Under the pieces are notes generated by a model that ran no database searches, was not told the DNA's origin, and saw nothing but the letters and a program-made list of their open reading frames with translations. DNA of 64,000 bases, taken from assembly GCA_009840575.1 (NCBI GenBank), contig VXNO01000017.1, positions 7,497-71,496 on the forward strand, given 5' to 3'. Of the stretch, positions 8,719 to 31,125 are shown piece by piece. The stretch's first letter is position 1. Each line of letters opens with the position of its first letter. The DNA comes from Chloroflexota bacterium. GTDB taxonomy: Bacteria > Chloroflexota > Anaerolineae > Aggregatilineales > Phototrophicaceae. Both the position numbers and the translations under genes were made by a program.

Positions 8719-8756
8719 TTGACGCGACTTTGTAAATTGTCTACAATAGGACAATA
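8719..8756 (+). promoter_or_regulatory. Promoter of the Opp/Dpp-type ATPase genes, overlapped by an ATTGTCTACAAT operator
   Basis: TTGACG (8719-8724), 17-nt spacer, TACAAT (8742-8747). The 12-mer ATTGTCTACAAT (8736-8747) is the exact reverse complement of the 12-mer at 25063-25074. It is followed by a second ACAAT (8752-8756). Confidence 0.6.
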
Positions 8757-12965: not shown

Positions 12966-14612
12966 TTATTTGCCCAGCTTCTCCGCATAAACATAATAGG
13001 TGCCGCGTTCACGACCGCCAGCCGCATCAGTCAGCCAAGTCTGCAGCTTGACTTCGCCAATCGGCAAATCCAGCCGAAAGGCCACTGCCGTATCGCCAAC
13101 CAAAACAGGCTTTTCGATTGTCTTTTCGCCCACTTGCAGACGCGCGGTTGAGGCTTGCATGGCGCGATCCGCTTCGCGTGGATGCGCCCGCAATTCGATG
13201 CGATAGCTGCCCGCCCGCGAGATATCGACCAGCCACCAGCCATTAGAATCGTAGGCAGGGTCGTCTAGCGCAGCTTGCAGCCAAGGGACTCTGCCCGAGG
13301 TGGGATGCCAGTCACGCGCCGAAAGCAGCACGGGGTTTTCGTGCCGCGTGCCAACCGGGACCGCTATTGTGCTGGCGAACACGTTTTGCAGGCTTTGCCA
13401 CCAAGCTTCGTAGTCACTGCGCAGATCTGCGACGATCTGTGTATGCGCCGCCGCCACATCGCGCTGTTGCGCCGGGTCGCTGCCGATATCGGTTAATTCG
13501 CTGCCGTTGATCAGCCGCCATCTCTCGTTCAGCACAACGCAATGATGCCACTTCTGCGGCGTATCCGGCTGCAACTGTAGGACCAAGGACCGATGCGGCA
13601 AATTGCAATCCGCGCCGAGCAGCAGATTCTTCAGGCTGATGCCGTCAAAAGGCCTGTCGCTTTCTAAACCACACAGGTCAAGCAAGGTCGGCAGCACATC
13701 GATATGGGCCGTCGGCCCTGGCAATTTGCGCCCGGCTGGAATAGTTCCCTGCCAGCGCCAGAAGCAGTTGACACGATGTCCGCCTTCGTAGACTGAGCCT
13801 TTTATACCGCGCATGCCCGCGTTGTAACCGCTATTCGCCGCGGCGTCCCAGCCAGCTGCCGTGCCATGGTCGGAGGTAAAGAGGACAATTGTGTTTTCGT
13901 CCAGCTCCAGCGCATGCAGATGCTCCAGCAACCGTCCCATATTCTCGTCGAAGTTGGCGATCATGCCGTAGAAATTGGCGCGTTTTTCTGGCATCTCCAA
14001 TTCGCGGTAGGGCGCGGCATATCGCTGCGGCGCGATGAAAGGCGAGTGCATGGCATTGGTGGACAGGTAAACAAAGAAGGGCTGGTGGCTGTGGCGGGAG
14101 ATAAAGTCCTGCGCGGCCGCAAAGAAAACATCCGTGCAATAGCCGGCGCATTGCATGGGCGAGCCATCCCGAAAATAGACATCGTCAAAATAGTTGTTTC
14201 CCCAATAATCGGGCAGCTCGCCCACGCCGCCGCCACGATGGCAGAGCGTTTCGTCAAAGCCGCGATAGTGCGGAGCAAAAGGATAATTGTCGCCCAGGTG
14301 CCACTTGCCGAACATGCCAGTGCGATAGCCACTATTGGCGAAACACTCGGCCGCGGTCACAGCGTCTGGATGCAGCAGGTGCCGGCCTTGGATGACATGC
14401 CAGACACCGTTGCGCGCCGCGTATTGTCCCGTCAGCAGCGCAGCGCGCGATGGCGAACACAGCGGGTCGTGGTGATGATCGTCCAACTGGGCGCTTTGGC
14501 TGGCTAAGCGGTCGAGGTGGGGTGTATTGAGGTGGGGATTGCCGTGGCAGCCGATATCGCCGTAGCCTTGGTCATCGGTGATGACGAAGACGACATTGGG
14601 CGCTTTAGGCAT
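12966..14612 (-). CDS. S1-family sulfatase (formylglycine-dependent), no signal peptide
   Basis: ..VVFVITDDQGYGD.. and the formylglycine motif ..LCSPSRAALLTGQ.. The N-terminus MPKAPNVVFV.. starts directly at the catalytic domain. Confidence 0.9.
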   Translation of the reverse strand: MPKAPNVVFVITDDQGYGDIGCHGNPHLNTPHLDRLASQSAQLDDHHHDPLCSPSRAALLTGQYAARNGVWHVIQGRHLLHPDAVTAAECFANSGYRTGMFGKWHLGDNYPFAPHYRGFDETLCHRGGGVGELPDYWGNNYFDDVYFRDGSPMQCAGYCTDVFFAAAQDFISRHSHQPFFVYLSTNAMHSPFIAPQRYAAPYRELEMPEKRANFYGMIANFDENMGRLLEHLHALELDENTIVLFTSDHGTAAGWDAAANSGYNAGMRGIKGSVYEGGHRVNCFWRWQGTIPAGRKLPGPTAHIDVLPTLLDLCGLESDRPFDGISLKNLLLGADCNLPHRSLVLQLQPDTPQKWHHCVVLNERWRLINGSELTDIGSDPAQQRDVAAAHTQIVADLRSDYEAWWQSLQNVFASTIAVPVGTRHENPVLLSARDWHPTSGRVPWLQAALDDPAYDSNGWWLVDISRAGSYRIELRAHPREADRAMQASTARLQVGEKTIEKPVLVGDTAVAFRLDLPIGEVKLQTWLTDAAGGRERGTYYVYAEKLGK

Positions 14613-15773: not shown

Positions 15774-17786
15774 CTAGTTGCTACCGCCTTCGAAGTACCA
15801 TTGTTCGGGCAAGAACAAGACCCACTGGCGGTAAGTCCAGCTCCATTGTCCAGTCGTGTCATTGGGCGGGGTGTTCTTCAAGTTCTTCTTGAAGAGCAAG
15901 GGTTGTGGCGGTCGTTGGATTGTACCAATCTGATACAAACCGCCCATCGACATGTTATAGAACTCCTTGCCCAGCGCCAGCCATTCATCAGACCCATAGG
16001 CAGAATCGAGGAATGCCTCGCCGGTTGCCCACAAATCTTTAATCTCCTGCGGCGGCTCTTCGCCTGCTTCGCCATCGGATTGCATCCATTGACGCCACAA
16101 GTGTCCTGAAGCGCGCGCGCCCCAATGCGGACGCATATTCGCCAGACTATTGGCTACCTCGCCGATATCCAACATATCGGTGCCCCAGGCTGCCATATCC
16201 ACCCCGTTGCTATCGCGCAATTCACGATACAAGCCGATTTCAATGAGCTTGTATTGTGTCTTTACGCCGACTTCGTTCCAGTAATCGGCGATCAGCTCGC
16301 CGATCCTGCGCCATGAATCTTCGGGCACAGACACCTGGAAGTTGATAAATAGCGTTTCGCCATCGGGACGCAGTCGGAAACCATCGCTATCTCGCTGGTC
16401 CAAACCCATTTCATCCAGAAGCTGGTTCGCCAGGTCAGGGTCATATTGCGCGTAATGACCGGGCATCCAATCTTCATAGAAGAGCGAAGTGGGAACAGGC
16501 GCATTCTGCGAAGCATTGGCTAAGCCGAAGTAAATAAGCTCGTTGATCTCTTCGCGGTTGATCGCCACCGACATAGCCTGGCGGAAGCGCATATCCCAGA
16601 AGATATCGCGCAAGGGCAGGTTTTCGGTCGTGAAATTGAACATGATCGAATACTCATTGCCACGGCTGTATTCAGCAGTCGCCGTGCGGTATCCGCCAGC
16701 TTCTTCATTTTCACGGTAGGTGGGATAGCTCAACAACGTGCCCCAGCCGTAATGCGAGTACTCTCCAGCAAGCGCTTTGAGGTCTTGGATTTGCAGATCT
16801 TCCACCAGGATGCGACGCAAGGTATCCGTATAGGGCAGTTGGTTGCCGGCTGGATCCACTTTGAAGAAGTAGGGATTGCGCACATAATGCTTGTTGCCCA
16901 AGCTGTCTTCGCTTTCGAAGACGAAGGTGTTGAGGGTTGGCGCGTAGGCATCCGTCTCCGAGCCCAGGTTCCAGGTGAAGTTGTAGGGGCTCATCTTGGC
17001 GTTGAACATCTGCACCCAGCCCTCAAAGCCGTTTTCTTCAGCCAGCGCGTTGGCATCCGGGTTGTAATCGAGATGAAACTGCTTGAAGTAATGCGCCGGG
17101 CGGAAACCACGATTGCCGACCTCGCTGCCCAGCGCAATCATCAACGTGGGGCGAGCCTTGGCATAGGTATAGCGCACCGTAGTCGCATCGATAATCTCAA
17201 ACTGCGGCAACTCGCCATCAACAGCCCAGGGACCGCCAGGCGATGGCGTGATGTCGCTATTGCCCAAGATGTCTTCTATGTAGAAGCGGAAGTCTTCGGC
17301 AGTGAATGGTTCGCCATCTGACCAGCGATGACCTTCGCGCAGGTGAAAAGTGAAGACCGTTTGGTCTTCGGAAACTTCAAAGTCACGGGCGACGTTAGGG
17401 ATGATTGTGGCCAGGTCAGTATCGATAGTGAAGAGTTTCTGCAAGCGCATCTCCAGCACATCCCATCCGCAGCAGACGGGGTTGGTTGAAGGACCAGCCA
17501 GCTCGCCGCCATATTCGCCGATTTGTTCCAGCGGCTGGACGACGGCTGGCTGCGCGGGCAAGCGCTCTTCGACAGGCGGCAGCTCACCCGCGGCGACCAT
17601 CTCCGCCAGCATCGGCGCTTCGCCCCACATGTCGATGCTGTTGCCGGTGGCGGCGCTGTAGGCATCCAGGTCGGCATACTGGAATGGATAGACCAACTGC
17701 CCCTCGTGCATGGCTTGCCCAAAAACGGCAGCCGGCAGCAAGACCAATGCCAGGATCGTTAGCAGTACAAATTGATTTCGCTTCAT
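15774..17786 (-). CDS. Family-5 (Opp/Dpp-type) ABC substrate-binding protein, probable oligosaccharide binder
   Basis: Start at MKRNQFVLLTILALVLLPAAVFG (ATG 17786), preceded by GAGGAG. It has a signal peptide. The large SBP_bac_5-like body and locus context argue for a sugar rather than peptide ligand. Confidence 0.8.
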   Translation of the reverse strand: MKRNQFVLLTILALVLLPAAVFGQAMHEGQLVYPFQYADLDAYSAATGNSIDMWGEAPMLAEMVAAGELPPVEERLPAQPAVVQPLEQIGEYGGELAGPSTNPVCCGWDVLEMRLQKLFTIDTDLATIIPNVARDFEVSEDQTVFTFHLREGHRWSDGEPFTAEDFRFYIEDILGNSDITPSPGGPWAVDGELPQFEIIDATTVRYTYAKARPTLMIALGSEVGNRGFRPAHYFKQFHLDYNPDANALAEENGFEGWVQMFNAKMSPYNFTWNLGSETDAYAPTLNTFVFESEDSLGNKHYVRNPYFFKVDPAGNQLPYTDTLRRILVEDLQIQDLKALAGEYSHYGWGTLLSYPTYRENEEAGGYRTATAEYSRGNEYSIMFNFTTENLPLRDIFWDMRFRQAMSVAINREEINELIYFGLANASQNAPVPTSLFYEDWMPGHYAQYDPDLANQLLDEMGLDQRDSDGFRLRPDGETLFINFQVSVPEDSWRRIGELIADYWNEVGVKTQYKLIEIGLYRELRDSNGVDMAAWGTDMLDIGEVANSLANMRPHWGARASGHLWRQWMQSDGEAGEEPPQEIKDLWATGEAFLDSAYGSDEWLALGKEFYNMSMGGLYQIGTIQRPPQPLLFKKNLKNTPPNDTTGQWSWTYRQWVLFLPEQWYFEGGSN

Positions 17787-17847
17787 GTTTATGCTCCTCT
17801 CAAAGCGTTGCACAGCAATGTTTACTCGGAAAATTGGCTACCGTCAT

Positions 17848-18975
17848 TTAGCCTCCTTTCACCTCGAACTCACGCAGTTTGTCCCACTCAAATTGCACAC
17901 CGTGGCCTGGCTCATCGCCGGCGCGCATGATGCCGTCTTTCAATTGCGGCGGATTCTTGATGAAGCGCTCCAAGCCGAAGCTGTGCACTTCCAGGAGCGA
18001 CGGATTGGGGATAGCCGCCAACAACTGCAAGTGCAGCTCATGCACGCCGTGCGAGGTTACGGGCAGGTTGTGCGCATAAGCCAGCCGCGCCACGCGCAGC
18101 CAGTTGGTGATGCCGCCAATGTTGGATACATCCGGCTCGGCAAAGGCGATGCCGGCCTCCAGCGTGTGGCGGAATTCGTAGATGGTGCGCAGGTTTTCAC
18201 CCGCGGCAATGGGCAAGCCGCCTTCGCGGGCGATGCGCCTCAAGCCGGCATAATCGTCGGGGATGGTCGGCTCTTCCAGCCAGTAGACATCGTAGTCGCG
18301 GAAGCTGCGTGCCGCGCGGATGGCTTGCTCGGTCGTCCAGCGCATATTGGCATCGACCATCAGCGGCAGGTCGGGACCCAAAAAGTCGCGCACTGCCCGC
18401 AGCCGGGCGATATCTTCGGACAGCTTGTCGCGCCCCACTTTGATTTTGATGGCGCGGAAGCCGGCTGCGAGGTTGCAGCGCATCTGCTCAACGAGTTCGT
18501 CTGGCCCCAGCTGCAAATCAATGCCGCCGGCATAAGCGCGCGCCTGCCCGGAGTAACCGCCCAGCAGCTTCCACAGCGGCTGCCCCTGGCTGCGCGCCAG
18601 CAGATCCCACAAGGCGGTATCGACCGCCGACATGGCGAAAGCGACCAGCCCGCCCCGTCCGACATAATGCAGGCAGCGCCACATGCGCTCCCAGATCTGC
18701 TCGATACGGCTGGCGTCCGCGCCCAGCAGCAGCGTCTTGATGTCGCGCTGGATCAAGGAGCGGATGGCCGCCCCGCCCCGCCCAATCGTATAGGTATAGC
18801 CGATGCCGCTGCGCCCGCAGTCGCTCTCCAGGCACACAGCCACGACTTCAAACTCAGTATGCACGCCATGGGTGGCATCGGTCATGGGATGACTGAGCGG
18901 CAATACAAAGTGCCGCGTTTCGATGCCAGCAATACGCAGTGGCGCGTTCATCGAAGAATTTGCAGAAGCTAACAT
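17848..18975 (-). CDS. Enolase-superfamily (mandelate racemase/muconate lactonising) enzyme, candidate 3,6-anhydrogalactonate cycloisomerase
   Basis: ..FRAIKIKVGRD.. (KxK), ..LMVDANMRW.., ..YWLEEP.., ..AAGENL.. metal-ligand motifs. Start taken at MLASANSS.. (18975), alternative at 18951. The ORF-track start at 19092 would run through the promoter region. Confidence 0.8.
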   Translation of the reverse strand: MLASANSSMNAPLRIAGIETRHFVLPLSHPMTDATHGVHTEFEVVAVCLESDCGRSGIGYTYTIGRGGAAIRSLIQRDIKTLLLGADASRIEQIWERMWRCLHYVGRGGLVAFAMSAVDTALWDLLARSQGQPLWKLLGGYSGQARAYAGGIDLQLGPDELVEQMRCNLAAGFRAIKIKVGRDKLSEDIARLRAVRDFLGPDLPLMVDANMRWTTEQAIRAARSFRDYDVYWLEEPTIPDDYAGLRRIAREGGLPIAAGENLRTIYEFRHTLEAGIAFAEPDVSNIGGITNWLRVARLAYAHNLPVTSHGVHELHLQLLAAIPNPSLLEVHSFGLERFIKNPPQLKDGIMRAGDEPGHGVQFEWDKLREFEVKGG

Positions 18976-18981
18976 AACAAA

Positions 18982-19049
18982 GTGATAATCGATTACTGAC
19001 AAATTGTCAAGTGTACATTGTTGACAATCTGCAATCTCGCCGCTACAAT
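18982..19049. promoter_or_regulatory. Back-to-back divergent consensus promoters with operator palindromes
   Basis: Plus strand: TTGACA (19021-19026), 17 nt, TACAAT (19044-19049). Minus strand: TTGACA (complement of 19005-19010), 17 nt, TATCAC (complement of 18982-18987). Palindromes TGACAA-A-TTGTCA (18997-19009) and ATTGTTGACAAT (19017-19028) overlap the two -35 boxes. Confidence 0.65.
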
Positions 19050-19105
19050 GCGAGCATGGTTCATCGGAAAAATATGATAGCAGCAGAGGCAAAGGTCACA
19101 GGCGC

Positions 19106-20101
19106 ATGAGGAATTATGTGCTGCAGCGGCTGGTCTATATGGTCTTTTTGCTGTGGCTGGTGACAGTCGTCACATTCATCGTGATTCAGTTGCCGCCTGG
19201 AGACTACCTCTCGACGTATATCAGCCGCCTGGAACAAGCCGGGGAAGACCTCACTGACGAAGAAGTCGCTGCGCTGCGTGAACAATATGGGCTGAATCTG
19301 CCCGTGTATGCGCGCTACTTCAAGTGGTTTGGACAAGTGCTTCAAGGCAATCTCGGCTTTTCCTACGACTGGGAGAAGCCAGTGCGAGATTTGATTGGAG
19401 AACGGCTCGCGCTGACGTTTTCGATTGCTATATTGTCAGCTATCTTCACTTATGCGGTCGCCATCCCTATAGGCATTTATTCCGCGGTGCATCAGTATTC
19501 CATCGGCGATTACATATTTTCTTTCATCGGCTTCATCGGCATGTCCATCCCCAATTTTATGCTGGCGCTGATCTTGCTGTATGTCGCTTGGTCGGAATAT
19601 GGACAAAATTTAACCGGTCTGTTCTCGCAGGAGTTTCAAGGCGCGCCTTGGAGTTGGGAGAAGCTGATTGATATGGCCAAGCACCTGCCCATTCCTATCA
19701 TTGTGATTGGCACGGGCGGGACAGCCGGCTTAATCCGCGTGATGCGCGGCACGCTTTTGGACGAGCTGAACAAGCAGTATGTCATCACCGCGCGCAGCAA
19801 AGGCTTGGGCGAAGTCAAGCTGCTCTTCAAATATCCCGTGCGCGTGGCGCTCAACCCCATCATCAGCAGCCTGGCTTGGCTCTTCCCCAGCTTGATTTCC
19901 GGCGGCACCATCACCGCCTATGTGCTGGGCTTGCCCACGGCGGGCCCCATGCTGTTGCGCTCTCTGTTGACGCAAGACACTTTTTTGACCGCGAGTTTGC
20001 TGATGTTCGTCACGATTTTGACTGTCATCGGCACGACGGTTTCCGATATTTTGCTGGTCGTGGTTGACCCGCGCATCCGCATGGAACGCGCGGCAAGCTA
20101 G
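19106..20101 (+). CDS. Opp/Dpp-type ABC transporter permease (DppB-like)
   Basis: 331 aa with N-terminus MRNYVLQRLVYMVFLLWLVTVVTFIVIQLPPGDY typical of DppB/OppB. EAA-like region ..YVITARSKGL.. Confidence 0.9.
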   Translation: MRNYVLQRLVYMVFLLWLVTVVTFIVIQLPPGDYLSTYISRLEQAGEDLTDEEVAALREQYGLNLPVYARYFKWFGQVLQGNLGFSYDWEKPVRDLIGERLALTFSIAILSAIFTYAVAIPIGIYSAVHQYSIGDYIFSFIGFIGMSIPNFMLALILLYVAWSEYGQNLTGLFSQEFQGAPWSWEKLIDMAKHLPIPIIVIGTGGTAGLIRVMRGTLLDELNKQYVITARSKGLGEVKLLFKYPVRVALNPIISSLAWLFPSLISGGTITAYVLGLPTAGPMLLRSLLTQDTFLTASLLMFVTILTVIGTTVSDILLVVVDPRIRMERAAS

Positions 20102-20113
20102 GCGGAGCGGAAA

Positions 20114-21259
20114 ATGTTGCGGCGAATCAGCAGCCGGCGCAAGGCAGCCAAAGCGCAAGCCCCCGCCTTTGACGAGAGCTATTATCTCGCCTCGCAGTGG
20201 CAGTTGATCTGGCGCAAGTTTCGCCGCCACCGGCTGGCTATCGGCTCGCTGCTTGTCATTATCGCGCTTTATTCCATGGCCCTCTTCTCCGAGTTTTATG
20301 CCATCAACGACTACCAAAAACGCCATGTCAGTTTCGCCAAGGCACCGCCGCATACTATCTATTTTGTGGACGAAGCCGGCGATTTCAGCCTGCGTCCCTT
20401 CATCTATCAGATGAAGCAGACCCTGGATATGGACACCTTGCAGCGCAATTATTCCGAAGTGCGCGATACAAAGTACCCGATACGCTTCTTTGTGCGCGGC
20501 GAGCCTTACAAGATACTGGGCTTGATAGACAGCGACATCCACTTGATGGGCGTAGAAGCGCCGGGCGTCTTCTTTCCTTTTGGCACGGATGATCTGGGGC
20601 GCGATGTATTCTCCCGCACCATGCACGCGGCGCGCATCTCGCTGTCGATTGGTTTCCTGGGCGTCATCATCAGCTTTGTGCTGGGCTGCCTCTTCGGCGG
20701 GATTTCCGGTTATTTTGGCGGCGTGGTCGACCTGGTGATTCAGCGGCTGATCGAGTTTCTGATTTCCATCCCGTCTATCCCGCTGATTATCGCGCTGGCA
20801 GCGGCGCTGCCACCGGAATGGAGCTCAACCCAGGTGTATTTTGGCATCACCATCGTGTTGGCGACAGTCGGCTGGACGACGCTGGCGCGGGCGGTGCGCG
20901 GCAAATTGCTGGAACTGCGCGAGGCGGATTTTGTCATGGCGGCGCGCATCTCCAATATGGGCGACATGGATATCATCATCAAGCACCTGCTGCCATCCTT
21001 CGCCAGCTTTCTGATCGTCGTGCTGAGCCTGTCCGTGCCGGGCATGATCCTTGCTGAGACGGCGCTGAGCTTCTTGCAGATTGGCATTCGTCCGCCCGCC
21101 GTCAGCTGGGGCGTGCTGCTGCAAGACGCGCAGAATATCCGCAGCCTCAGCCAAAGCCCCTGGCTCTTGATCCCCGGCTTGTTTGTCATCGTCACTGTGC
21201 TGGCCTTTAATTTCTTGGGCGATGGCTTGCGGGATGCCGCCGACCCCTACAAACAATAA
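20114..21259 (+). CDS. Opp/Dpp-type ABC transporter permease (DppC-like)
   Basis: 381 aa. ..FPFGTDDLGRDVFSR.. and ..DFVMAARISNMG.. motifs are typical of DppC/OppC. Confidence 0.9.
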   Translation: MLRRISSRRKAAKAQAPAFDESYYLASQWQLIWRKFRRHRLAIGSLLVIIALYSMALFSEFYAINDYQKRHVSFAKAPPHTIYFVDEAGDFSLRPFIYQMKQTLDMDTLQRNYSEVRDTKYPIRFFVRGEPYKILGLIDSDIHLMGVEAPGVFFPFGTDDLGRDVFSRTMHAARISLSIGFLGVIISFVLGCLFGGISGYFGGVVDLVIQRLIEFLISIPSIPLIIALAAALPPEWSSTQVYFGITIVLATVGWTTLARAVRGKLLELREADFVMAARISNMGDMDIIIKHLLPSFASFLIVVLSLSVPGMILAETALSFLQIGIRPPAVSWGVLLQDAQNIRSLSQSPWLLIPGLFVIVTVLAFNFLGDGLRDAADPYKQ

Positions 21260-21313: not shown

Positions 21314-21922
21314 ATGACCACAATCGAAATCTATCGCACCTTGCCCGAACAGATCGCCGCGCGCTTGCGCCAAGAGGTGCTATCCAACAAACTCAAACCG
21401 GGCGACCCCCTGCGCGAAGCCGATCTATCGCAGCGCTTCGGGGTCAGCCGTGGACCGGTGCGCGAGGCTTTCCGGCAGCTCACGCAGCAGGGCTTGCTGG
21501 TGCTGGAGCCAAACAAAGGCGCGCGCGTCGCCCAAAACCCCAGCGTCGAGGTGCGCCCACTGGTCGTGCAGCTGCGCCGCGCCATCGAAACTTTCGTGCT
21601 GGACAGCATCTTCGCTCGCATCACCGAGACCGATATAGCGCGCTGGGAAGCTATCCTAGCGGATATTCAGGCGGCTTGCCTGAACAACGATGTCGACGCG
21701 CTGACGGACAGCGACCTGCGCTTCCATCAAGCCATTATCCAGAGCCACGATGACAAAGACATCTTCACGTTGTGGCAGCCCATCGCCATGCGCATGATGA
21801 TGCAATATACGCGCCACGGCGACATCATGGAGAGCTACCGCGAGCACAAGCGCATCCTGGATGCCATCCGCAGCGGCGACAAGCTGGGCGCAATCGACGC
21901 CTTGTATGCCAATATCCAGTAA
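21314..21922 (+). CDS. GntR-family transcriptional regulator, FadR-type (FCD C-terminal domain)
   Basis: N-terminal winged HTH ..LKPGDPLREADLSQRFGVSRGPVREAFRQLTQQGLLVLEPNKGARV.. The helical C-terminal domain carries a His-containing FCD-like pattern. Confidence 0.85.
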   Translation: MTTIEIYRTLPEQIAARLRQEVLSNKLKPGDPLREADLSQRFGVSRGPVREAFRQLTQQGLLVLEPNKGARVAQNPSVEVRPLVVQLRRAIETFVLDSIFARITETDIARWEAILADIQAACLNNDVDALTDSDLRFHQAIIQSHDDKDIFTLWQPIAMRMMMQYTRHGDIMESYREHKRILDAIRSGDKLGAIDALYANIQ

Positions 21923-21952: not shown

Positions 21953-22972
21953 ATGGCAGTCGCAGCCTATTACGAAGGGGAGCGCCGCATCCGCCAGGGG
22001 CAATGCCTGCCGCGCCCGCCGTCCGCCGGCGAAGTACAGTTGCGCGTTTCGCATTGTGGCATCTGTGGCACTGACCTGCACATATTTCACGGCGCGATGG
22101 ATGCGCGCGTACAGATGCCGCTGGTGATGGGCCACGAAATGTCGGGCACAGTCCACGCAGCCGGCGCGGATGTCGAAGGCTTCACGCCGGGCGATCGGGT
22201 GGTTGTGATGCCACTGGAACCCTGTCATAACTGCCCTGCCTGCGCAGCCGGGCACAGCCACATCTGCCACAACCTGAACTTCCTGGGCATCGATACGCCG
22301 GGCGCATTCCAGAGTTACTGGACGGTGCCCGCCTTTTCGCTGCATCGCGTGCCGGCTTCGCTCTCGCTGCGACATGGCGCGCTGATTGAGCCGCTGGCGG
22401 TGGCTTGCCATGATGTGCGGCTGGCCGATGTGCGGGCGGGCGACCAGGTGGTTGTGTTGGGCGGCGGACCCATCGGCATGTTGGTGGCGCTGGTGGCGCG
22501 GCAGGCGGGCGCGGATGTACTCATCTCTGAGATCAACCCCTATCGCGTCGACCTGGCGCGGCGACTGAGCTTCGCGGCGCTCAATCCACGCGATGATGAC
22601 TTGCTGGCGACTGTGCTGCGGCGCACGGGTGGCGCGGGCGCGGACATCGTCTTTGAAGTCTCTGGCTCACAGGCGGGCGCGTCTGTGATGAGCGAATTGC
22701 TGCGCACACGCGGATTGGCGGTGGTGGTCGCGATCTTCGCCCAGCCGCCCAAGCTGGATTTGTTCCGCTTCTTTTGGCGCGAGCTGCGTTTGCAGGGTGC
22801 GCGCGTTTATGAGAGCCAGGACTTCGCCGCCGCCATCGAGTTGGCTGCTGACGGCGGGCTGCCCTTGGACGAACTAATCACCGATGTCCGCCCCTTGAGC
22901 GCGTTGCAAGCCGGCTTTGAAGATATGGAAAAAGGCGGGCGCTTCATGAAGATTCTCTTGGAGGTGCCATGA
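21953..22972 (+). CDS. Zn-dependent medium-chain alcohol dehydrogenase (sorbitol/threonine-DH-like), candidate 2-keto-3-deoxy-L-galactonate 5-dehydrogenase
   Basis: ..HCGICGTDLH.., ..GHEMSG.., structural-Zn Cys cluster ..CHNCPACAAGHSHIC.., Rossmann ..VLGGGPIG.. The specific substrate is inferred from context only. Confidence 0.8.
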   Translation: MAVAAYYEGERRIRQGQCLPRPPSAGEVQLRVSHCGICGTDLHIFHGAMDARVQMPLVMGHEMSGTVHAAGADVEGFTPGDRVVVMPLEPCHNCPACAAGHSHICHNLNFLGIDTPGAFQSYWTVPAFSLHRVPASLSLRHGALIEPLAVACHDVRLADVRAGDQVVVLGGGPIGMLVALVARQAGADVLISEINPYRVDLARRLSFAALNPRDDDLLATVLRRTGGAGADIVFEVSGSQAGASVMSELLRTRGLAVVVAIFAQPPKLDLFRFFWRELRLQGARVYESQDFAAAIELAADGGLPLDELITDVRPLSALQAGFEDMEKGGRFMKILLEVP

Positions 22973-23739
22973 CTGTACTCGATTCTTTTCGGCTGGACGG
23001 CAAGACGGCGCTGGTGACCGGGGCGCGGCGCGGCATTGGCTTCGCCATGGCCAGCGCTTTAGCAGAAGCCGGCGCGGATATCATCGCCGTTAGCGCCAGC
23101 CTGGAAAACAGCGGCAGCGCGATAGAAGCGGCTGTCTCCGCGCAGGGGCGGCGCTTCGCTGGCTATCGCTGTGATTTTTCGAGGCGGGCTGAACTGAAAG
23201 ATTTCATCACGCAAGTAAGCAGCGAACACCCGGTCATCGATATTTTGGTCAACAATGCGGGGGCGGTCCTGCGCGAGCCGGCTACCTCGCATAGCGATGC
23301 CTATTGGGATCGCATCATCGAAATCAACCTGAACGCGCAGTTCGTTCTCAGCCGTGAGCTTGGTGCCCGCATGTTAGAGCGCGGCAGTGGCAAGATCATC
23401 TTCACCGCTTCGCTGCTGACATTTCAAGGTGGCATCACAGTGCCTGGTTATGCAGCCAGCAAAGGCGGCATCGGACAACTGACCAAAGCGCTGGCGAATG
23501 AATGGGCGGGCGGCGGCGTGCAGGTCAATGCCATCGCGCCCGGCTATGTGCGCACCGATGTAACCGAAGCCCTGCAAAATAACCCCGACCGGTACCGCGC
23601 CATCCTGGAGCGCATCCCGGCGGGGCGCTGGGGGCATATCGACGATTTCAAGGGCCCGGTCGTCTTCCTGGCTTCGGCGGCGTCGGATTATGTCAACGGC
23701 GAAATCCTGGTGGTCGACGGCGGCTGGATGGGTCGCTGA
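22969..23739 (+). CDS. Short-chain dehydrogenase/reductase, KduD-like
   Basis: ATGA overlap with the preceding gene. TGARRGIG cofactor motif, YAASKGG (YxxxK) catalytic motif, overall KduD-like N-terminus ..LDGKTALVTGA.. Confidence 0.85.
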   Translation: MTVLDSFRLDGKTALVTGARRGIGFAMASALAEAGADIIAVSASLENSGSAIEAAVSAQGRRFAGYRCDFSRRAELKDFITQVSSEHPVIDILVNNAGAVLREPATSHSDAYWDRIIEINLNAQFVLSRELGARMLERGSGKIIFTASLLTFQGGITVPGYAASKGGIGQLTKALANEWAGGGVQVNAIAPGYVRTDVTEALQNNPDRYRAILERIPAGRWGHIDDFKGPVVFLASAASDYVNGEILVVDGGWMGR

Positions 23740-25058: not shown

Positions 25059-25080
25059 GTCAATTGTAGACAATCGACAA
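25059..25080. promoter_or_regulatory. Operator-like 22-mer GTCAATTGTAGACAATCGACAA upstream of the GH117 gene
   Basis: Contains ATTGTAGACAAT (25063-25074). It differs at one position from the 22-mer at 26094-26115. Confidence 0.6.
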
Positions 25081-25127: not shown

Positions 25128-25390
25128 TCAGCCCTTGAGGCCGGAGTAGCTGATGCCTTCGACGAAGTAGCGCTGGAAGAACAAAAAGATAAGCGCCATT
25201 GGCAAGGTTGTGATGACCGAGCCAGCCAGCACCAAATCGTACTGGATATCCTGCCCGCTGCCGCGCAGCACCGTCAAGTCCAGCGGCAGGTTATACAAGT
25301 CGGTGTTGCCGCCCAGGATAATCAGCGCGTCCATGAAGTTATTCCAATTGCCCTGGAAGCTAAATATTGTCAGTGCCGTCAGCGAGGCTT
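25128..25390 (-). pseudogene. 3' remnant of a CUT1-type (MalG-like) sugar ABC permease gene
   Basis: Own translation upstream of the 68-aa ORF gives ..[27 protein letters not shown]...[32 protein letters not shown], the conserved C-terminal quarter of MalG-type permeases. Similarity is lost near 25390 and an in-frame stop lies at about 25416. No N-terminal part is present. Confidence 0.7.
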
Positions 25391-25415
25391 GCTCGCATCT
25401 TGTGTACTCTGGCTT

Positions 25416-25982
25416 TCAGCGTAGAGAGCCCAGCTTGAACAGTCGAGAGGAAGCGCTGATCAATGAAGTTCCAATACAGCAAGCCGCAATGGCGAACAAG
25501 CCGATGATGCTGCCTGGAACGATTCCTGCGCTAGTGGATAGCAGGAATGCAATCAGCAGTCCGATGAGCGTCGCCACTTTCATTTTGAGCGTGCCAAAGA
25601 ATCCGACTCCGAAATAGAGGATTGTGACGGGAATCATGATGTGCAGATTGCCGACGTAATCAAACACCGCTCCAAGAACATAGCTGCCGATTCCAAGAGC
25701 GCCGCCGACAAATCTAGCTGGCCCTGAGTTCTCTATACCGTCTTTGATGTTGCCCAAGCGCCGCGAAAGGTCGTTTTGCCAGTTGTCGAATCCTCTTCGC
25801 ATCTTGTCAAAGACGGTTCGCTGCGCGGCGATTTCAGCTTGCACATGCTGATAACGCGCGTACCCGGCGACAGAGACCGCAACCACAATGAAGACGAAGA
25901 CTGCAAGAGAAACATAGGGGCGGCGGCTGATTTTGGCCTTGGCAGAGCGGTATCTCGCCTTGATGAAACTTTGCGCCTTCAT
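25416..25982 (-). CDS. Hypothetical polytopic membrane protein (possible recent insertion)
   Basis: Start at MKAQSFIK.. (25982), preceded by GGAG. 188 aa with several TM segments. It uses visibly more A/T-ending codons than its neighbours (by eye, not computed). No recognised family. Confidence 0.5.
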   Translation of the reverse strand: MKAQSFIKARYRSAKAKISRRPYVSLAVFVFIVVAVSVAGYARYQHVQAEIAAQRTVFDKMRRGFDNWQNDLSRRLGNIKDGIENSGPARFVGGALGIGSYVLGAVFDYVGNLHIMIPVTILYFGVGFFGTLKMKVATLIGLLIAFLLSTSAGIVPGSIIGLFAIAACCIGTSLISASSRLFKLGSLR

Positions 25983-26093
25983 GAAAGCTCCTTCTAGTAT
26001 GCAGTGGACTTCGCAACTAGGCTGAACATGAGCGGGATGCGCTGGAACAAGCGCCAGGCCCGAATGATATGCGCATAACTTGACACTGGTAAA

Positions 26094-26115
26094 GTCAATT
26101 ATAGACAATCGACAA
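26094..26115. promoter_or_regulatory. Operator-like 22-mer GTCAATTATAGACAATCGACAA upstream of the GMC oxidoreductase/GH117-fusion operon
   Basis: 21 of 22 positions match 25059-25080. A TTGACA box lies at 26080-26085 just upstream. Confidence 0.6.
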
Positions 26116-26129
26116 ATCTGGGTCAAGCA

Positions 26130-27764
26130 ATGGCGCAAAATGCCGGCTATGCTTGGTGGCTGTCGGCTGGAGGAGAGCACACGGTGATACGCGAGGCGGA
26201 CTACATCATCATCGGCGCTGGCTCGGCTGGGGCAGCGGTTGCGGCGCGCCTAAGCGAAGACCCGCGCGCGACTGTGCTGCTGTTGGAAGCTGGCGGACCA
26301 GACAGCGACCCGACCATCCATGTGCCGGCGCGTTTTTCCGAACTTTTCCACAGCGATATCGACTGGGATTATGAAACTGTGCCTCAGCCGGGCTTGAATG
26401 GGCGGCGGGAATATGTACCGCGCGGAAAAGTGTATGGCGGCACCAGCTCCATGAACGCCATGGTTTATCAGCGCGGGCATCCTTCTGATTATGATGGCTG
26501 GGCGGAGGCGGGCAACCAAGGCTGGGCATACCAGGATCTGCTGCCTTGGTTCAAGAAGATGCAGCATCAGGAGCGCGGTGAATCGTGGCATCACGGCAGC
26601 GGCGGGCCAATCAACGTGGCTGACCTGCAAGACCCGAATCCATTGAGTCGGGCTTTTGTGGCTGGCGCGCTAGAGCTAGGATATGCGCCGCGCGAAGATT
26701 TCAACGCGGGACAGCAAGAAGGTTTTGGGCTATACCAGGTTACGCAGAAGCGCGGACAGCGGCACAGCAGCGCGGTCGGATACTTGCGACCAGCTTTGCA
26801 GCGCCCGAACTTCACCGCCCTGCCCTATGCTCATGCCACTCGCTTGTGTATTGAGGGCAAACGGTGCCAGGCGGTCGAGTTCTGGTGCCAGGGCGAGCGC
26901 AAAACAGCCTATGCCAGAAGGGAAGTCATCGTCTGTGGCGGCGCGATCAACTCGCCACAACTGCTGCTGCTTTCGGGCATAGGCGCGGCCGCGCAGCTTT
27001 CCAAGCACGGCATCCCAGTCGTAGTAGACCTACCTGGCGTTGGGCTGGGCTTGACCGATCATATGCAAGTGCCAGTCGCTTATCATTGCACTGCGCCAAT
27101 CAGCCTAGCCGGCAAAGACACCGCCGAGCAATTGCGGCTATATGAAGCAGGGCGCAGAGGCTTGCTGACATCAAACCTGGGCGAGGCGGGTGGATTTGTA
27201 CGGCTCGACTCGCGTTCACCAGCGCCCGAGCTGCAATATCATTTCGGGCCTGATTGGTTCATTCGGCACGGATTCGATCCGCCGCCGGGGCACGGCTTCA
27301 CTATTTTGGCTGGTTTGGTCGGCACAAAGAGCGCTGGCAAATTGGAGCTGGCATCGGCAGATCCCTTCGCTGCGCCCTTGATCGACTTTGCCTGCCTGAG
27401 CCACCCTGAGGATGTGCGCGTCCTGCTGGCGGGGGTCAAGTTGGCGCGGCGCATCGCCCAAAGCAGCGCATTTGATGCCTACCGCGGCGAAGAGTTCTTG
27501 CCCGGCGCGCAGCTAAGGGATGACGCGGAGTTGACCCGCTTCATCCGCAAGTTCGCCACCACGATCTATCATCCCGCCTGCAGCTGCAAGATGGGCAAAG
27601 ACCGACTGGCGGTGGTGGACGAACGACTTCGTCTACATGGAATTGAAGGACTGCGCGTGGCTGACGCTTCAATTATGCCGCGCATCGTCAACGCCAACAC
27701 CAATGCGCCCTGCATTATGATCGGCGAAAAAGCGGCGGACATGATCCGCGAGGACAATAGATAA
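26130..27764 (+). CDS. GMC-family FAD oxidoreductase (choline/glucose dehydrogenase-like)
   Basis: ..DYIIIGAGSAGAAVAARLSED.. FAD-binding fold, ..GGTSSMNAMVYQRG.. GMC signature, C-terminal ..YHPACSCKMG.. active-site His region. The true start may be slightly downstream. Confidence 0.9.
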   Translation: MAQNAGYAWWLSAGGEHTVIREADYIIIGAGSAGAAVAARLSEDPRATVLLLEAGGPDSDPTIHVPARFSELFHSDIDWDYETVPQPGLNGRREYVPRGKVYGGTSSMNAMVYQRGHPSDYDGWAEAGNQGWAYQDLLPWFKKMQHQERGESWHHGSGGPINVADLQDPNPLSRAFVAGALELGYAPREDFNAGQQEGFGLYQVTQKRGQRHSSAVGYLRPALQRPNFTALPYAHATRLCIEGKRCQAVEFWCQGERKTAYARREVIVCGGAINSPQLLLLSGIGAAAQLSKHGIPVVVDLPGVGLGLTDHMQVPVAYHCTAPISLAGKDTAEQLRLYEAGRRGLLTSNLGEAGGFVRLDSRSPAPELQYHFGPDWFIRHGFDPPPGHGFTILAGLVGTKSAGKLELASADPFAAPLIDFACLSHPEDVRVLLAGVKLARRIAQSSAFDAYRGEEFLPGAQLRDDAELTRFIRKFATTIYHPACSCKMGKDRLAVVDERLRLHGIEGLRVADASIMPRIVNANTNAPCIMIGEKAADMIREDNR

Positions 27765-30241
27765 TGACAGCCTCACAACACAAGCCGCGCCTGCCTGGCG
27801 AGCCAAGCGTGAATAAACCCAAGGATCGTCAGCTTAGCGCCGCAACGCGCCGTCTGTACGACAAGTGGGGACGGTATCAAGATTCCACCAGCGAGTTCTA
27901 TACGACATTCAAATACAGCCGCCTCACAGGAATCGGCAAGCAAGCCGGCATCACCCGCCGCGACCCGACCACTGTGCTTCGAATAGACGGCACCTATTTC
28001 GTCTGGTACACGCGCCGCCAAACAGAAAATGACCGCGACATCCGCAACAAGCCTCCTCATCAACAGCAGACCTGGCATACACCTGTCTACGATTGGGACC
28101 TGGCGGAGATATGGTACGCCACATCGCAAGATGGCTTTCATTGGCAAGAGCGCGGCGTGGCCATCAGGCGCGGACCGAAAGATGCTTACGATGGCCGTTC
28201 GGTCTTCACACCCGATGTCCTGATGACTAAGCAGGGCTACTATCTGTATTATCAAGCTGTCGATTATCCCTATTGCACGCGCACGCGCAACAGCATCGGC
28301 ATGTCATTCGCAAGCTCGCCGCATGGGCCTTGGCAGCGCGTCGAAAGACCAGTGTTGCGACCCGGCGCGGCAGGCGAATGGCTAAACGATGATGACTCGG
28401 ACGAAGTCATCCGCTATGGTGATTGGGACAGCCACAAAGTGCATGACCCTTTCATCCTGGCGCGGGATGGTCGCTACTGGCTATATTACAAAGGACAGCC
28501 CATGGGTTGGACGACCCGCTATTCTCGCGGCATCGGCTGGGGTGTCGCAATCGCCGACCAGCCCGATGGACCTTTCGTGAAATCGCCACTCAATCCCCTC
28601 ACCAACAGCGGGCATGAGACTTGTCTGTTCCCGTATGGCGAAGGCTTGTTAGCGATTTGCGGACACGATGGCCCCGAGAAAGACACTATCCAATATGCAG
28701 CTGATGGGCTGAACTTCGAAGTAGTTGCGCATGTCACGCTGCCCCCGCCAGCTGGAGGGCCTTTCGCGCCAGATTCCTATGCGGACACAGCTGATGGCAG
28801 CGGCATCACCTGGGGGCTCGCGCATATCGCCACTGAAGAGCTGAAGCGCGGCAACTCCTATCTCATTCGTTTTGATTGCAACTTGCGCCCTGGGCTCGAG
28901 CGACCCGGTTTTCGCGGCACGAATATCCGCTTCCCCGAATCAGTCTATTTTTCGCCGGATATCGCGCTGAACGAAGACAACAAACAACCTTTGCGCTATG
29001 CAAGCAAGCCAGAGCCGCCGCCGCGGGCCCCGCTACTTGAAACCCTGAGCCGGGCATCTCAACGCGTGTACAAGACTTTTGGGCAGTACAAAGACCAAGG
29101 CAGTGAGTTCTTCTCGGCATTTAAATATTCGTCAATCAGCGGACTGGGAAAAGAGCTGGGCTGCACGCGGCGCGACCCATCCAAGGTCATCCGCGTCGGC
29201 GAAAAGTATTTTGTCTGGTATACACGCCGCAAAACCGCACAGACCTGGCGCGGCACCCAGCAAGCCAGCAGTACGCGCCCAGCCTGGGCCTGGGACATGG
29301 CGGATATCTGGTACGCTGAATCACCAGATGGATTCCATTGGCGGGAATGCGGACCCGCTGTGCTTCGTGGCGCGCCGGGCAGCTTTGACGACCGCTCGGT
29401 ATTCACTCCCGATATCTTGATACATGGTGGCAAATTCTATCTATACTACCAAGTATCACAGGGTATATGGACTCAGCGGGCGCGCCACCTGATCGGCATG
29501 GCTTGGGCGGAATCCCCATATGGTCCCTGGACGAAGCTCGACCAGCCGGTATTGCAGCCCGGCCTGGCTGGCGAGATTGTTGGCGCGGATGATGATGCCG
29601 ATGCAATCGGCAGCTTCGGCGAATGGGACTCGCACAAATTGCATGATCCCTTTGTCTTGCGCTACCGCGGGCAGATTTGGCTGTATTACAAAGGTGTGCA
29701 ATACGGGCGGACATATCGTCATGATCTGGGCATCGGCTGGGGCGTGGCTATGGCGGATGACCCGCGAGGACCCTTTGTCAAGTCGTCTTTGAACCCGATC
29801 ACCAACAGTGGCCACGAGACCTTTCTCTATCCTTTCCGCAAAGGCATAGTCGCTATCACCAGCCACGAAGGCCCCGAGAAGAATACAGTCCAATACGCAA
29901 GCGATGGGCTAAACTTCCAAGTAGTCGGCAAAGTATCTGTGCCGCCCGTTGCGGCTGGCCCCTATGTGCCCGATGCTTTCACCGACAGCCAAGACGGACG
30001 CGGCATCAGTTGGGGCTTGTCACACATCCACCACGATGATGCAGGGCCGCTCGCGGATTCTTACTTGGTACGTTTCGACTGCAACCTCAGTCGAGACGAG
30101 CAGCGCGCCGACTTTTACCGCGCCTGGAATTACCGCTTTCCTGAATCAGCCTATTTCAGCCAGGGATTTGCGCTGACACCACAAATGAAAAGCGAAGCGC
30201 TGCAGCTCATGCAAGCGATAGACACAGATACGATTGTCTGA
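27764..30241 (+). CDS. Tandem GH117-GH117 fusion protein (two complete GH117-like domains)
   Basis: 825 aa; start overlaps the GMC stop (TAATG). Each half has the full motif set: RRDPT/RRDPS, YFVWYTRR, WD(L/M)A(E/D)IWYA, VFTPD(V/I)L, YYLYYQ, SHK(V/L)HDPF, WLYYKG, NP(L/I)TNSGHET, GPEK(D/N)T(I/V)QYA(A/S)DGLNF, WGL(A/S)HI, (L/V)(I/V)RFDCNL. The Pro-rich linker ..ASKPEPPPRAP.. lies at about 29000-29035. Confidence 0.85.
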   Translation: MTASQHKPRLPGEPSVNKPKDRQLSAATRRLYDKWGRYQDSTSEFYTTFKYSRLTGIGKQAGITRRDPTTVLRIDGTYFVWYTRRQTENDRDIRNKPPHQQQTWHTPVYDWDLAEIWYATSQDGFHWQERGVAIRRGPKDAYDGRSVFTPDVLMTKQGYYLYYQAVDYPYCTRTRNSIGMSFASSPHGPWQRVERPVLRPGAAGEWLNDDDSDEVIRYGDWDSHKVHDPFILARDGRYWLYYKGQPMGWTTRYSRGIGWGVAIADQPDGPFVKSPLNPLTNSGHETCLFPYGEGLLAICGHDGPEKDTIQYAADGLNFEVVAHVTLPPPAGGPFAPDSYADTADGSGITWGLAHIATEELKRGNSYLIRFDCNLRPGLERPGFRGTNIRFPESVYFSPDIALNEDNKQPLRYASKPEPPPRAPLLETLSRASQRVYKTFGQYKDQGSEFFSAFKYSSISGLGKELGCTRRDPSKVIRVGEKYFVWYTRRKTAQTWRGTQQASSTRPAWAWDMADIWYAESPDGFHWRECGPAVLRGAPGSFDDRSVFTPDILIHGGKFYLYYQVSQGIWTQRARHLIGMAWAESPYGPWTKLDQPVLQPGLAGEIVGADDDADAIGSFGEWDSHKLHDPFVLRYRGQIWLYYKGVQYGRTYRHDLGIGWGVAMADDPRGPFVKSSLNPITNSGHETFLYPFRKGIVAITSHEGPEKNTVQYASDGLNFQVVGKVSVPPVAAGPYVPDAFTDSQDGRGISWGLSHIHHDDAGPLADSYLVRFDCNLSRDEQRADFYRAWNYRFPESAYFSQGFALTPQMKSEALQLMQAIDTDTIV

Positions 30242-30270
30242 TTCCTGAGGAGAATCGCAATGTCTGCGAA

Positions 30271-31125
30271 TTACACGACCTTTTCCGCGGCCAGGCTGAA
30301 CATGAGCGGGATGCGCTGGGGCAGGTGGCTGGGCATGGCATAACGGCGTCCGCCCAGCTCACGCATATCGGGCATGGGCTTGAAGCCGTTGCAATGGTCG
30401 TATTCGCGCAGGTGAGTCAGCCGCAAGCCCGCGCCCAGCAGCGCCATGATAACCTCGGCGATGCCCCATTGGTATTCGAAGCCGGGGTGCGGATTCACGA
30501 AGTCGACCACGCCGGCTTGCAGTTGCTTGGTCTCGGCGGCGCTGCCAGTTAGCGCCACATAATCACCCACGCCCGACTCGAATTCATAGACGACGCCACC
30601 CATGAAGTCGTAGCGAAGCCGCCACTGCTCATCGAACATGGCGAAGGCGGGGTGAAAATCCACCAGCACAAAGCGCCCGCCCGGCATTAAACAATTGGCG
30701 ATGCCACGTCCCCAAGCCGCCAGGTCAGAAAGCCAGCACAACACGCCATAAGACGCAAATGCGACAGCATATTCCCGCTCGCTTTGCTCAAAATAGTCGT
30801 AAATATCGGCGCGCAAAAAGTCGGCAGCGATGCCTGTGTCCTGCGATAGCTGCCGCGCAAAACGGATTGCCTCGTCGCTGATATCCACGCCAGTGCAGCG
30901 CGCGCCCAAATGCCTGGCGATGCTCAAGGTATCTTGCCCAGCATTGCATTGCAGGTGCAGCAGGGTTTTGCCAGCCACATCGCTGAGCAGCGTAGTCTCT
31001 TCGGAGAATAACGTACTGCCGCCCGCCCGGAAGAAGTCGGCTTGGTCACCCTTGTGGCTGTTGTGCGCCTTTGTGCCTTCATTCCAAGCCAGGCGGTTGC
31101 TCTCGTGCTGTCTGCGGTTGGGCAT
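30271..31125 (-). CDS. Class I SAM-dependent methyltransferase
   Basis: Start taken at MPNRRQHE.. (31125). Motif I-like ..LLHLQCNAGQDTL.., ..GVDISDEAI.., ..LMPGGRFVL.. Confidence 0.7.
   Translation of the reverse strand: MPNRRQHESNRLAWNEGTKAHNSHKGDQADFFRAGGSTLFSEETTLLSDVAGKTLLHLQCNAGQDTLSIARHLGARCTGVDISDEAIRFARQLSQDTGIAADFLRADIYDYFEQSEREYAVAFASYGVLCWLSDLAAWGRGIANCLMPGGRFVLVDFHPAFAMFDEQWRLRYDFMGGVVYEFESGVGDYVALTGSAAETKQLQAGVVDFVNPHPGFEYQWGIAEVIMALLGAGLRLTHLREYDHCNGFKPMPDMRELGGRRYAMPSHLPQRIPLMFSLAAEKVV

Follow-up and report, generated by a model that had tools for sequence, protein, structure and literature searches.

The window analysed here is a 64,000-nucleotide stretch of contig C88 (80.6 kb), which belongs to a 94.7% complete metagenome-assembled genome (MAG) of a sponge-associated member of the Chloroflexota (Aggregatilineales/Phototrophicaceae), designated G000. 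Near-identical DNA is present in sponge metagenomes from several studies. Within the window, a gene encoding a GMC flavoenzyme is followed by a gene for a fusion of two GH117 glycosidase domains and is preceded by a divergently oriented GH117 gene. The same locus encodes a homologue of 3,6-anhydro-L-galactonate cycloisomerase (ACI), an enzyme that acts in the breakdown of 3,6-anhydro-L-galactose (AHG) on the product of its first oxidation, 3,6-anhydro-L-galactonate (AHGA). The aldehyde dehydrogenase (ALDH) that performs this oxidation in the described pathway (AHG dehydrogenase, AHGD) was not found, and the GMC protein is the candidate examined for this step. The coordinates of the features are listed in Table 1.

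The sequence-only reading had drawn the GMC gene from 26130 to 27764 on the plus strand, had noted the overlap of its stop with the start of the GH117 fusion and had assigned the pair an operator-bearing upstream region of its own. The open reading frame (ORF), its domains and its stop stand as described and the longer frame opens at an in-frame ATG at 26130, but the gene probably starts at GTG 26184, since the alignments of all 120 listed homologues (about 522-539 aa each) begin there and a GGAGGAG motif precedes it at the right spacing. With this start the protein would comprise 526 residues, opening directly with the FAD motif and most likely without a signal peptide. The stop/start overlap with the fusion gene is confirmed. 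Across about 50 related loci the corresponding gap runs, for most, from a small overlap to about +20 nt, as estimated from the ends of tblastn alignments, and this similarity argues that the tight junction does not arise by chance. The upstream region is also as claimed, with the operator variant ATTATAGACAAT at 26098-26109 overlapping the -10 element of a promoter-like sequence. This variant is one of four sites in the window that fit the pattern ATTNTNNACAAT, against 0.12 expected by chance, and most related loci carry the consensus ATTGTAGACAAT no more than 350 nt upstream of GMC. The GntR/FCD regulator encoded in the locus likely binds the ATTGTAGACAAT operator, an assignment that we infer. 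The divergent GH117 gene and GMC are separated by about 1.1 kb here (25128-26180) versus about 115-280 nt in relatives, and this insertion, peculiar to the genome, splits the control region into two operator copies, the consensus at 25063 and the variant at 26098. The membrane-protein ORF at 25416-26180, between the GH117 gene and GMC, has no Pfam match. Contigs assembled from two sponge metatranscriptome runs (X19 and X20) are identical to pieces of GMC (26326-26503 and 26974-27260), and others to pieces of the fusion gene (29752-30292) and of the gene for a solute-binding protein (SBP); being short and of low depth, with DNA carry-over possible, they are not taken to prove that the genes are transcribed or co-transcribed.

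Scanning species genomes recovered 54 GMC loci, 70-87% identical, from MAGs that carry the labels Anaerolineae, Aggregatilineales or Phototrophicaceae, and the named relatives of the protein are Chloroflexota MAGs. The core arrangement, in which a GH117 gene diverges from GMC and the GH117-GH117 fusion lies downstream under the same operator, is kept in about 55 related species genomes. Nearly all related loci repeat this core together with genes for a short-chain dehydrogenase/reductase (SDR), a zinc-dependent alcohol dehydrogenase (Zn-ADH), a GntR regulator, ACI and the SBP, and no ALDH gene lies within 10 kb. The core is retained in rearranged loci of genus g33 (L014, L083) and genus g24 (L012, L074, L082), while in a close relative (L009/L019) the fusion is absent and GMC is present. 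GMC is thus a fixed member of the locus, whose arrangement, tight junction and upstream ATTGTAGACAAT are kept in most relatives, even after rearrangement. In a sample of 81 genomes of the family, covering 42 genera, GH117 genes occur in about 4 genera, and the GMC-flanking type of GH117 is present in six genomes, with a GMC orthologue adjacent in all six. A sample of 300 further Chloroflexota yielded no GH117. Sponge-associated lineages probably obtained the entire locus by horizontal transfer.

The GMC protein contains the Pfam domains GMC_oxred_N (PF00732, E 1.8e-52) and GMC_oxred_C (PF05199, E 1.7e-36) and carries the FAD-binding Rossmann motif GxGxxG of the superfamily as IIIGAGSAG at residues 8-16. 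Its closest solved relative among the 50 PDB matches at E <= 1e-20 is the choline dehydrogenase 9lq0 (413 bits), followed by the chloramphenicol oxidase CmO (8b7s, 395 bits) and the bacterial alcohol oxidases 8rpg (378 bits) and 8rpf. Further matches include a bacterial alcohol oxidase (309 bits) and choline oxidase (about 312 bits; 2jbv 311 bits) and, lower down, fatty-acid photodecarboxylase, pyridoxine 4-oxidase, aryl-alcohol oxidase and HMF oxidase. Residues H353, H463 and N505 align with His351, His466 and Asn510 of choline oxidase, which serves as the numbering reference, and the catalytic pair H463 and N505 is invariant in the 69 relatives compared. In contrast, the position of the choline-binding Glu312, which contacts the trimethylammonium group, is occupied by Gln295 (Gln in 63 of the 69 relatives), and the position of His99, the site of covalent FAD attachment, is Met or Ile. 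Glu is kept at the Gln295 position in 9lq0 and in the proteobacterial BetA-like matches L067 and L070. By homology the protein belongs to the BetA/choline oxidase/CmO clade, and it is predicted not to be a choline dehydrogenase, since Gln295 replaces Glu312 and its scores fall below both NCBIfam betA cut-offs (597.1 bits against 605 for NF002550; 531.9 against 732.1 for TIGR01810).

The near miss to the first of these models and the database name of the relatives, 'choline dehydrogenase', are what would commend the view that GMC is an ordinary choline or generic alcohol dehydrogenase hitch-hiking in the locus, with no part in anhydrogalactose metabolism. This is very improbable: beside the Gln substitution, no betB, betI or betT gene lies nearby, the neighbours being GH117 genes, and the position, coupling and operator of GMC are conserved over three genera and through rearrangements. 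The clade itself is informative for the chemistry. CmO, which differs from the GMC protein in substrate and genomic context, takes a primary alcohol through the aldehyde stage to the carboxylic acid, and BetA, choline oxidase and HMF oxidase similarly carry aldehyde hydrates on to carboxylic acids. Free AHG exists mainly as the aldehyde hydrate. Oxidation of AHG at C1 by an enzyme of this clade is thus chemically plausible.

The genome holds a second BetA-like protein (G000:C27:14423-16027; L084:8424-10028), 56% identical to GMC, with Arg at position 295 and Ile at 353, whose gene lies about 1.1 kb from that of a 906-aa protein with galactarate/altronate-dehydratase domains. Another paralogue, of the G033 type, is surrounded by creatinase-like, 2-oxoacid dehydrogenase and arginase-family genes. 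Both were considered as guides to the GMC substrate and set aside as uninformative. In a quick FastTree phylogeny they fall inside the GH117-linked group, from which no order of events is drawn.

The sequence-only reading had offered, as an alternative to oxidation of AHG, that GMC oxidises the oligosaccharide ahead of cleavage, yielding a 3-keto sugar for instance. Oxidation of a secondary hydroxyl in this way could also replace hydrolysis, as in FAD-glycoside-oxidoreductase- or CarA-type oxidative deglycosylation. Genus g24 has a Gfo/Idh/MocA and AP_endonuc_2 pair between the GH117 gene and GMC, and three tiny ORFs (71, 41 and 72 aa) between GMC and the GH117 fusion (regions L074:17238-19182 and L012:11578-12168). 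Pairs of Gfo/Idh/MocA and AP_endonuc_2 (xylose-isomerase-like) proteins are typical of keto-sugar and elimination pathways, so that the g24 pair speaks for a keto-sugar route, as does the translational coupling of GMC to a glycosidase. GMC-type glycoside oxidoreductases do exist (PMC6950322). The FAD-dependent glycoside 3-oxidoreductases (FAD-GO, CarA and pyranose 2-oxidase-like enzymes), GMC proteins with a part in glycoside breakdown, oxidise secondary alcohols at C3 or C2. Against this route, the 50 PDB matches include no chain of the pyranose 2-oxidase or glycoside 3-oxidase type. The sugar-acting members that do appear reach 143-191 bits (pyranose dehydrogenase, glucose oxidase, oligosaccharide dehydrogenase) versus 413 for BetA. 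The Gfo/Idh/MocA and AP_endonuc_2 pair was not found in the loci of genera g1 and g33, and the GH117 domains, judged by their resemblance to solved enzymes, look like intact hydrolases. Oxidation of a secondary hydroxyl of the oligosaccharide is thus disfavoured and appears improbable.

The requirement for AHGA in the locus comes from its ACI gene. The encoded enolase-superfamily (MR_MLE) protein matches the ACI structure 5xd7 with 379.8 bits and 2ovl, a putative racemase of S. coelicolor that we take to be SCO3480, with 390.1 bits; the next family scores 197. SCO3480, annotated as a racemase, was shown to be an ACI (PMC9706016). By these scores the gene at 17848-19092 is clearly an ACI orthologue. 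Its longest ORF (414 aa) is extended at the N-terminus by about 40-50 aa, with similarity beginning near residue 54, and the true start is probably near 18975; solved ACI and racemase-like chains have 368-371 aa and the called ACI genes of relatives 362-410 aa. Since a clear ACI orthologue is encoded here and retained in nearly all related loci, AHGA must be made. AHG would be released by GH117 enzymes, of which four domains are encoded in the locus, with activity predicted by similarity. The 375-aa GH117 is the probable source of free AHG, being closest to chains titled 3,6-anhydro-alpha-L-galactosidase, and both halves of the fusion match solved GH117 structures: 4ak5, an anhydro-alpha-L-galactosidase, for the N-terminal half (E 6.9e-87, query 15-357) and 4u6d for the C-terminal half (E 8.8e-84, best stretch 616-803). 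The Zn-ADH and the KduD-like SDR are candidates for the conversion of 2-keto-3-deoxy-L-galactonate to KDG. Elsewhere in the genome there are 2 PF01081 (KDPG-aldolase) and 19 PfkB matches, homologues at the level of family only.

The claim that no ALDH-family gene is present in the locus holds for the entire 80.6-kb contig, which has no PF00171 match; all eight matches of the genome are on other contigs. A relevant reference is provided by a relative of genus g24, genome G054, whose locus (L074) encodes a 484-aa ALDH with a stop region that overlaps the ACI start, the canonical position of an AHGD. In the PDB this ALDH matches 6j75 (524 bits) and 3k2w (506 bits) best, both presumably AHG dehydrogenases, ahead of E. 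coli AldA (425 bits). The sequence-only reading had proposed a search of the remaining genome for an ALDH-type AHGD. No ALDH of the AldA/AHGD type was found there, the best match being 34% identical to the L074 enzyme, and neither was one found in the two other genomes of the same genus searched, G059 (1 contig) and G029 (2 contigs), where matches reach only E about 1e-73. Orthologues of the L074 ALDH occur in two of the 81 family genomes (99% and 88% identity), all other matches being at 41% or below. Two generic ALDHs of the genome belong to other subgroups, one on C120 being like 5kf0/ALDH21/GAPN and one on C106 like the 767-aa chain of 6mvr, and both have neighbours foreign to AHG metabolism and no operator. 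The C106 protein (G000:C106:6255-8678; L086) has 807 aa, with a second, partial ALDH-like domain, and matches 6mvr, presumably an ALDH16-type enzyme, with 696 bits; DnaJ-like, M20 peptidase and 5'-nucleotidase genes surround it. A co-regulated AHGD encoded elsewhere, which would have spoken against a role of GMC, was not found either: a genome-wide scan for the strict operator returned sites on the window's contig and at C167:13340 only, none near an ALDH gene. The C167 site is the only other exact copy of ATTGTCTACAAT in the genome and lies inside or at the start of the second of two tandem DUF4438 genes, beside an aminotransferase gene and a CUT1-type ABC system (C167:12303-14068; L085:4963-6728).

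A further g24 genome, G023 (single contig, 94% complete), shows how the ALDH may be lost. Directly upstream of ACI it has N- and C-terminal remnants of the ALDH (L088:12035-12283; G023:C1, about 188035-188283), covering residues 1-69 and 423-483, each with an internal gap, and its GMC, ACI and GH117 genes are intact. The heavily deleted ALDH of G023 is a pseudogene; upstream of the ACI gene in the window no remnant is detectable. The AHGD-like ALDH is thus dispensable in genomes that keep ACI and GMC: it is rare in the family, was not found in this genome or in the same-genus genomes searched, and has decayed in G023, where GMC and ACI are intact.

The sequence-only reading had suggested that GMC oxidises AHG at C1 in an FAD-dependent variant of the pathway, in place of the AHGD. 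This is the reading we favour, because ACI is kept, an AHGD-type ALDH was not found, the ALDH has decayed in G023, the operator is shared and the clade is suited to the reaction. GMC is the best candidate for the first oxidation of the pathway and, with a probability of roughly 45%, is an FAD-dependent dehydrogenase converting AHG to AHGA that has displaced the ALDH. The protein would act in the cytoplasm as an FAD-dependent dehydrogenase or oxidase, oxidising the aldehyde (hydrate) of AHG, or of a close derivative released by the neighbouring GH117s, to AHGA, which would then feed the ACI of the locus. Catalysis would proceed through the conserved residues His463 and Asn505, in the way that choline oxidase handles the hydrate of betaine aldehyde. 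In this scheme the gene anatomy, the synteny, the operator, the ACI orthology, the clade placement and the failed search for an AHGD-type ALDH are observed, while substrate, product and electron acceptor are predicted. The gene would be co-transcribed and translationally coupled with the GH117 fusion, yielding the two proteins in a fixed ratio, and its operon would share with the remaining pathway genes repression at a common GntR-type operator.

GMC would in this way do the job of the NAD(P)-dependent AldA-type AHGD of Vibrio, Bacteroides and Streptomyces. The known AHGDs, VejAHGD of Vibrio sp. EJY3, SCO3486 of S. coelicolor and NP1_28 of B. uniformis NP1, are NAD(P)+-dependent members of the AldA-like ALDH subgroup (PMC9706016; PMC5849685). 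By analogy, the proposed reaction and the pathway position upstream of ACI would be the same, and the company of GH117, ACI, Zn-ADH and KduD-like SDR genes is shared as well (PMC9706016; PMC5849685; L074). In contrast, the AHGDs have an ALDH fold and act through a cysteine thiohemiacetal with NAD(P)+, whereas GMC is an FAD flavoprotein whose gene is coupled to a GH117 gene and not to ACI. As the protein has GMC domains only and lacks the PF00171 fold with its catalytic Cys, it would be a functional analogue of the AHGDs at most and not a member of their family.

Several observations weigh against GMC being the AHG-oxidising enzyme. Since GMC coexists in genus g24 with an intact AHGD-like ALDH coupled to ACI (G054/L074), it is not simply a replacement everywhere. 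A second genome, G078 (94% complete), has a reduced locus (L081; G078:C2:48000-67900) in which GMC, AP_endonuc_2, Gfo/Idh/MocA, an AHGD-like ALDH and an esterase are intact; no GH117 or ACI was found in this genome, and the locus also lacks the Zn-ADH, the KduD-like SDR and GntR. The Gln295 position is His in the G078 GMC, whose gene adjoins a second Opp-type permease pair, a Bmp-family protein and an SBP5 gene. This retention pattern suggests that the role of GMC is not strictly tied to GH117 and ACI, and the G054 and G078 loci together fit redundancy during displacement and a distinct ancestral role equally well. A GMC with 65% identity and the same active-site signature, encoded on an ENA contig of a 4.29-Mb genome (L013), has several sulfatases, a GH3, PhyH-family proteins and an FAA-hydrolase gene for neighbours, and no GH117 occurs within 10 kb of it. 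The product of the GMC-flanking GH117s may not be plain AHG, because the titles of their closest structures, 4u6d and 4u6b, name no activity; we take these to be Zobellia GH117 paralogues. In some genomes a divergent, unlinked ALDH, such as the 41% matches in G023 and G062, could oxidise AHG, given that functional AHGDs can be as little as 40% identical to each other (PMC9706016). It is formally possible that the Zn-ADH or the SDR of the locus is the AHG oxidiser, although both also stand beside ALDH and ACI in L074, which argues that they have steps of their own. In the literature searched, no GMC enzyme acting on AHG is reported, no work links GH117 with choline dehydrogenase, and 'anhydro-L-galactose' and 'GMC oxidoreductase' occur together only in a general discussion of Zobellia AA3 enzymes.

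The co-occurrence of GMC and GH117, which the sequence-only reading had proposed as a check, belongs to the same weighing. The association is robust, holding in some 55 species genomes and all six family genomes with the flanking GH117 type, but it is confined to one lineage, so that the synteny mostly reflects shared ancestry. The nearest outgroup GMCs, P0122, P0124 and P0125 (51-56% identity), occur in unrelated contexts and, as GH117 was not found in the 300 other Chloroflexota either, there is no independent replicate of the link outside the lineage. The rearranged loci alone add some independent weight.

Much of this evidence bears on a further explanation, in which GMC oxidises another metabolite of the locus: a primary alcohol or an aldehyde on a modified sugar, a group freed by the 4u6d/4u6b-like GH117s, or the C6 hydroxyl of galactose or of the oligosaccharide. 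In genus g24 the resulting aldehyde would be passed to the ALDH, in the manner of BetA/BetB or AlkJ/AlkH, and in the genomes lacking that ALDH another enzyme would oxidise AHG. The joint presence of GMC and an intact AHGD-like ALDH in G054 and G078, the G078 set that goes without GH117 and ACI, the uninformative titles of the structures nearest the flanking GH117s and the sulfatase/GH3 surroundings of L013 are all consistent with it. Similarly, primary alcohols are the typical substrates of the clade, and the gene of P0122 (56% identity) is followed directly by an ALDH gene. Such a role would nevertheless leave the conversion of AHG to AHGA without a candidate in more than 50 genomes that keep ACI. 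Moreover, the g24 ALDH is coupled to ACI and not to GMC, and no additional pathway genes for a product of this kind are conserved beside GMC in g1 and g33. We therefore regard oxidation of another metabolite as unlikely, while giving it serious weight.

Oxidation of AHG by GMC can be extended to an account of how the ALDH was displaced, which we hold more tentatively and would not back at even odds. In this clade of sponge-symbiont Chloroflexota, GMC may have taken over the first step of AHG catabolism from the NAD(P)-dependent ALDH, with the process seen at three stages: both enzymes present (G054/L074), ALDH remnants (G023) and ALDH gone (g1 and g33). It would then be the first FAD-dependent anhydro-sugar dehydrogenase, made in a fixed ratio with a covalent GH117 pseudo-dimer and possibly removing the reactive aldehyde on release.

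Table 1 Features of the GMC-GH117 locus, in positions of the window; names of functions are predictions by similarity
Feature	Position	Strand	Remark
Fourth operator copy	8736-8747		Upstream of Opp-type ATPase genes (8780-10844)
S1 sulfatase	12966-14612	-	Pfam Sulfatase, E 1.3e-58
GH117, 375 aa	14605-15732	-	Closest to 3,6-anhydro-alpha-L-galactosidase-titled chains; 3r4y 333 bits; 4ak5 and 3p2n ~304 bits
Family-5 SBP of Opp-type importer	15774-17813	-	Opp-type permease genes at 19106-21259 (+)
ACI orthologue (MR_MLE)	17848-19092	-	Operator at 19017-19028 in divergent promoter region
GntR/FCD regulator	21314-21922	+	Pfam GntR and FCD
Zn-ADH	21953-22972	+	Candidate, with SDR, for 2-keto-3-deoxy-L-galactonate to KDG
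KduD-like SDR	22969-23739	+	Candidate, with Zn-ADH, for the same step
GH117, 448 aa	23745-25091	-	Closest to 4u6d/4u6b; divergent partner of GMC operon in relatives; operator ATTGTAGACAAT at 25063-25074
Insertion between GH117 gene and GMC	25128-25982	-	This genome only; small membrane-protein ORF
Promoter-like TTGACA-18-GACAAT	26080-26109	+	-10 overlaps operator variant ATTATAGACAAT
Shine-Dalgarno-like GGAGGAG	26169-26175	+	8 nt before GTG 26184, read directly from the sequence
GMC flavoenzyme, 526 aa	26184-27764	+	BetA-like, predicted not choline dehydrogenase; candidate FAD-dependent AHG dehydrogenase
TAATG stop/start overlap	27762-27766	+	TAA 27762-27764 (GMC), ATG 27764-27766 (fusion)
GH117-GH117 tandem fusion, 825 aa	27764-30241	+	Second gene of the operon

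The importer of the locus is divided, its Opp-type ATPase genes sitting 8 kb from the permease and SBP genes.

The AHG pathway and the GH117, ACI and GMC enzymes are all known, and an FAD-dependent first step is not described in the literature searched; if confirmed, the finding would add a variant of a known pathway rather than a new kind of system. The conversion of red-algal agar has its bottleneck in AHG catabolism, whose first enzyme has so far been of one kind, the NAD(P)-dependent ALDH. An AHG-oxidising GMC would represent a new catalyst without the need for a nicotinamide cofactor and clearly exemplify non-orthologous gene displacement. Annotation practice would change too, since pathway predictors that require an ALDH would call these genomes AHG-negative and databases name the enzyme 'choline dehydrogenase'. 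For the organisms themselves, the locus suggests that abundant sponge-associated Chloroflexota draw carbon from oligosaccharides of the agar type or with anhydrogalactose units.

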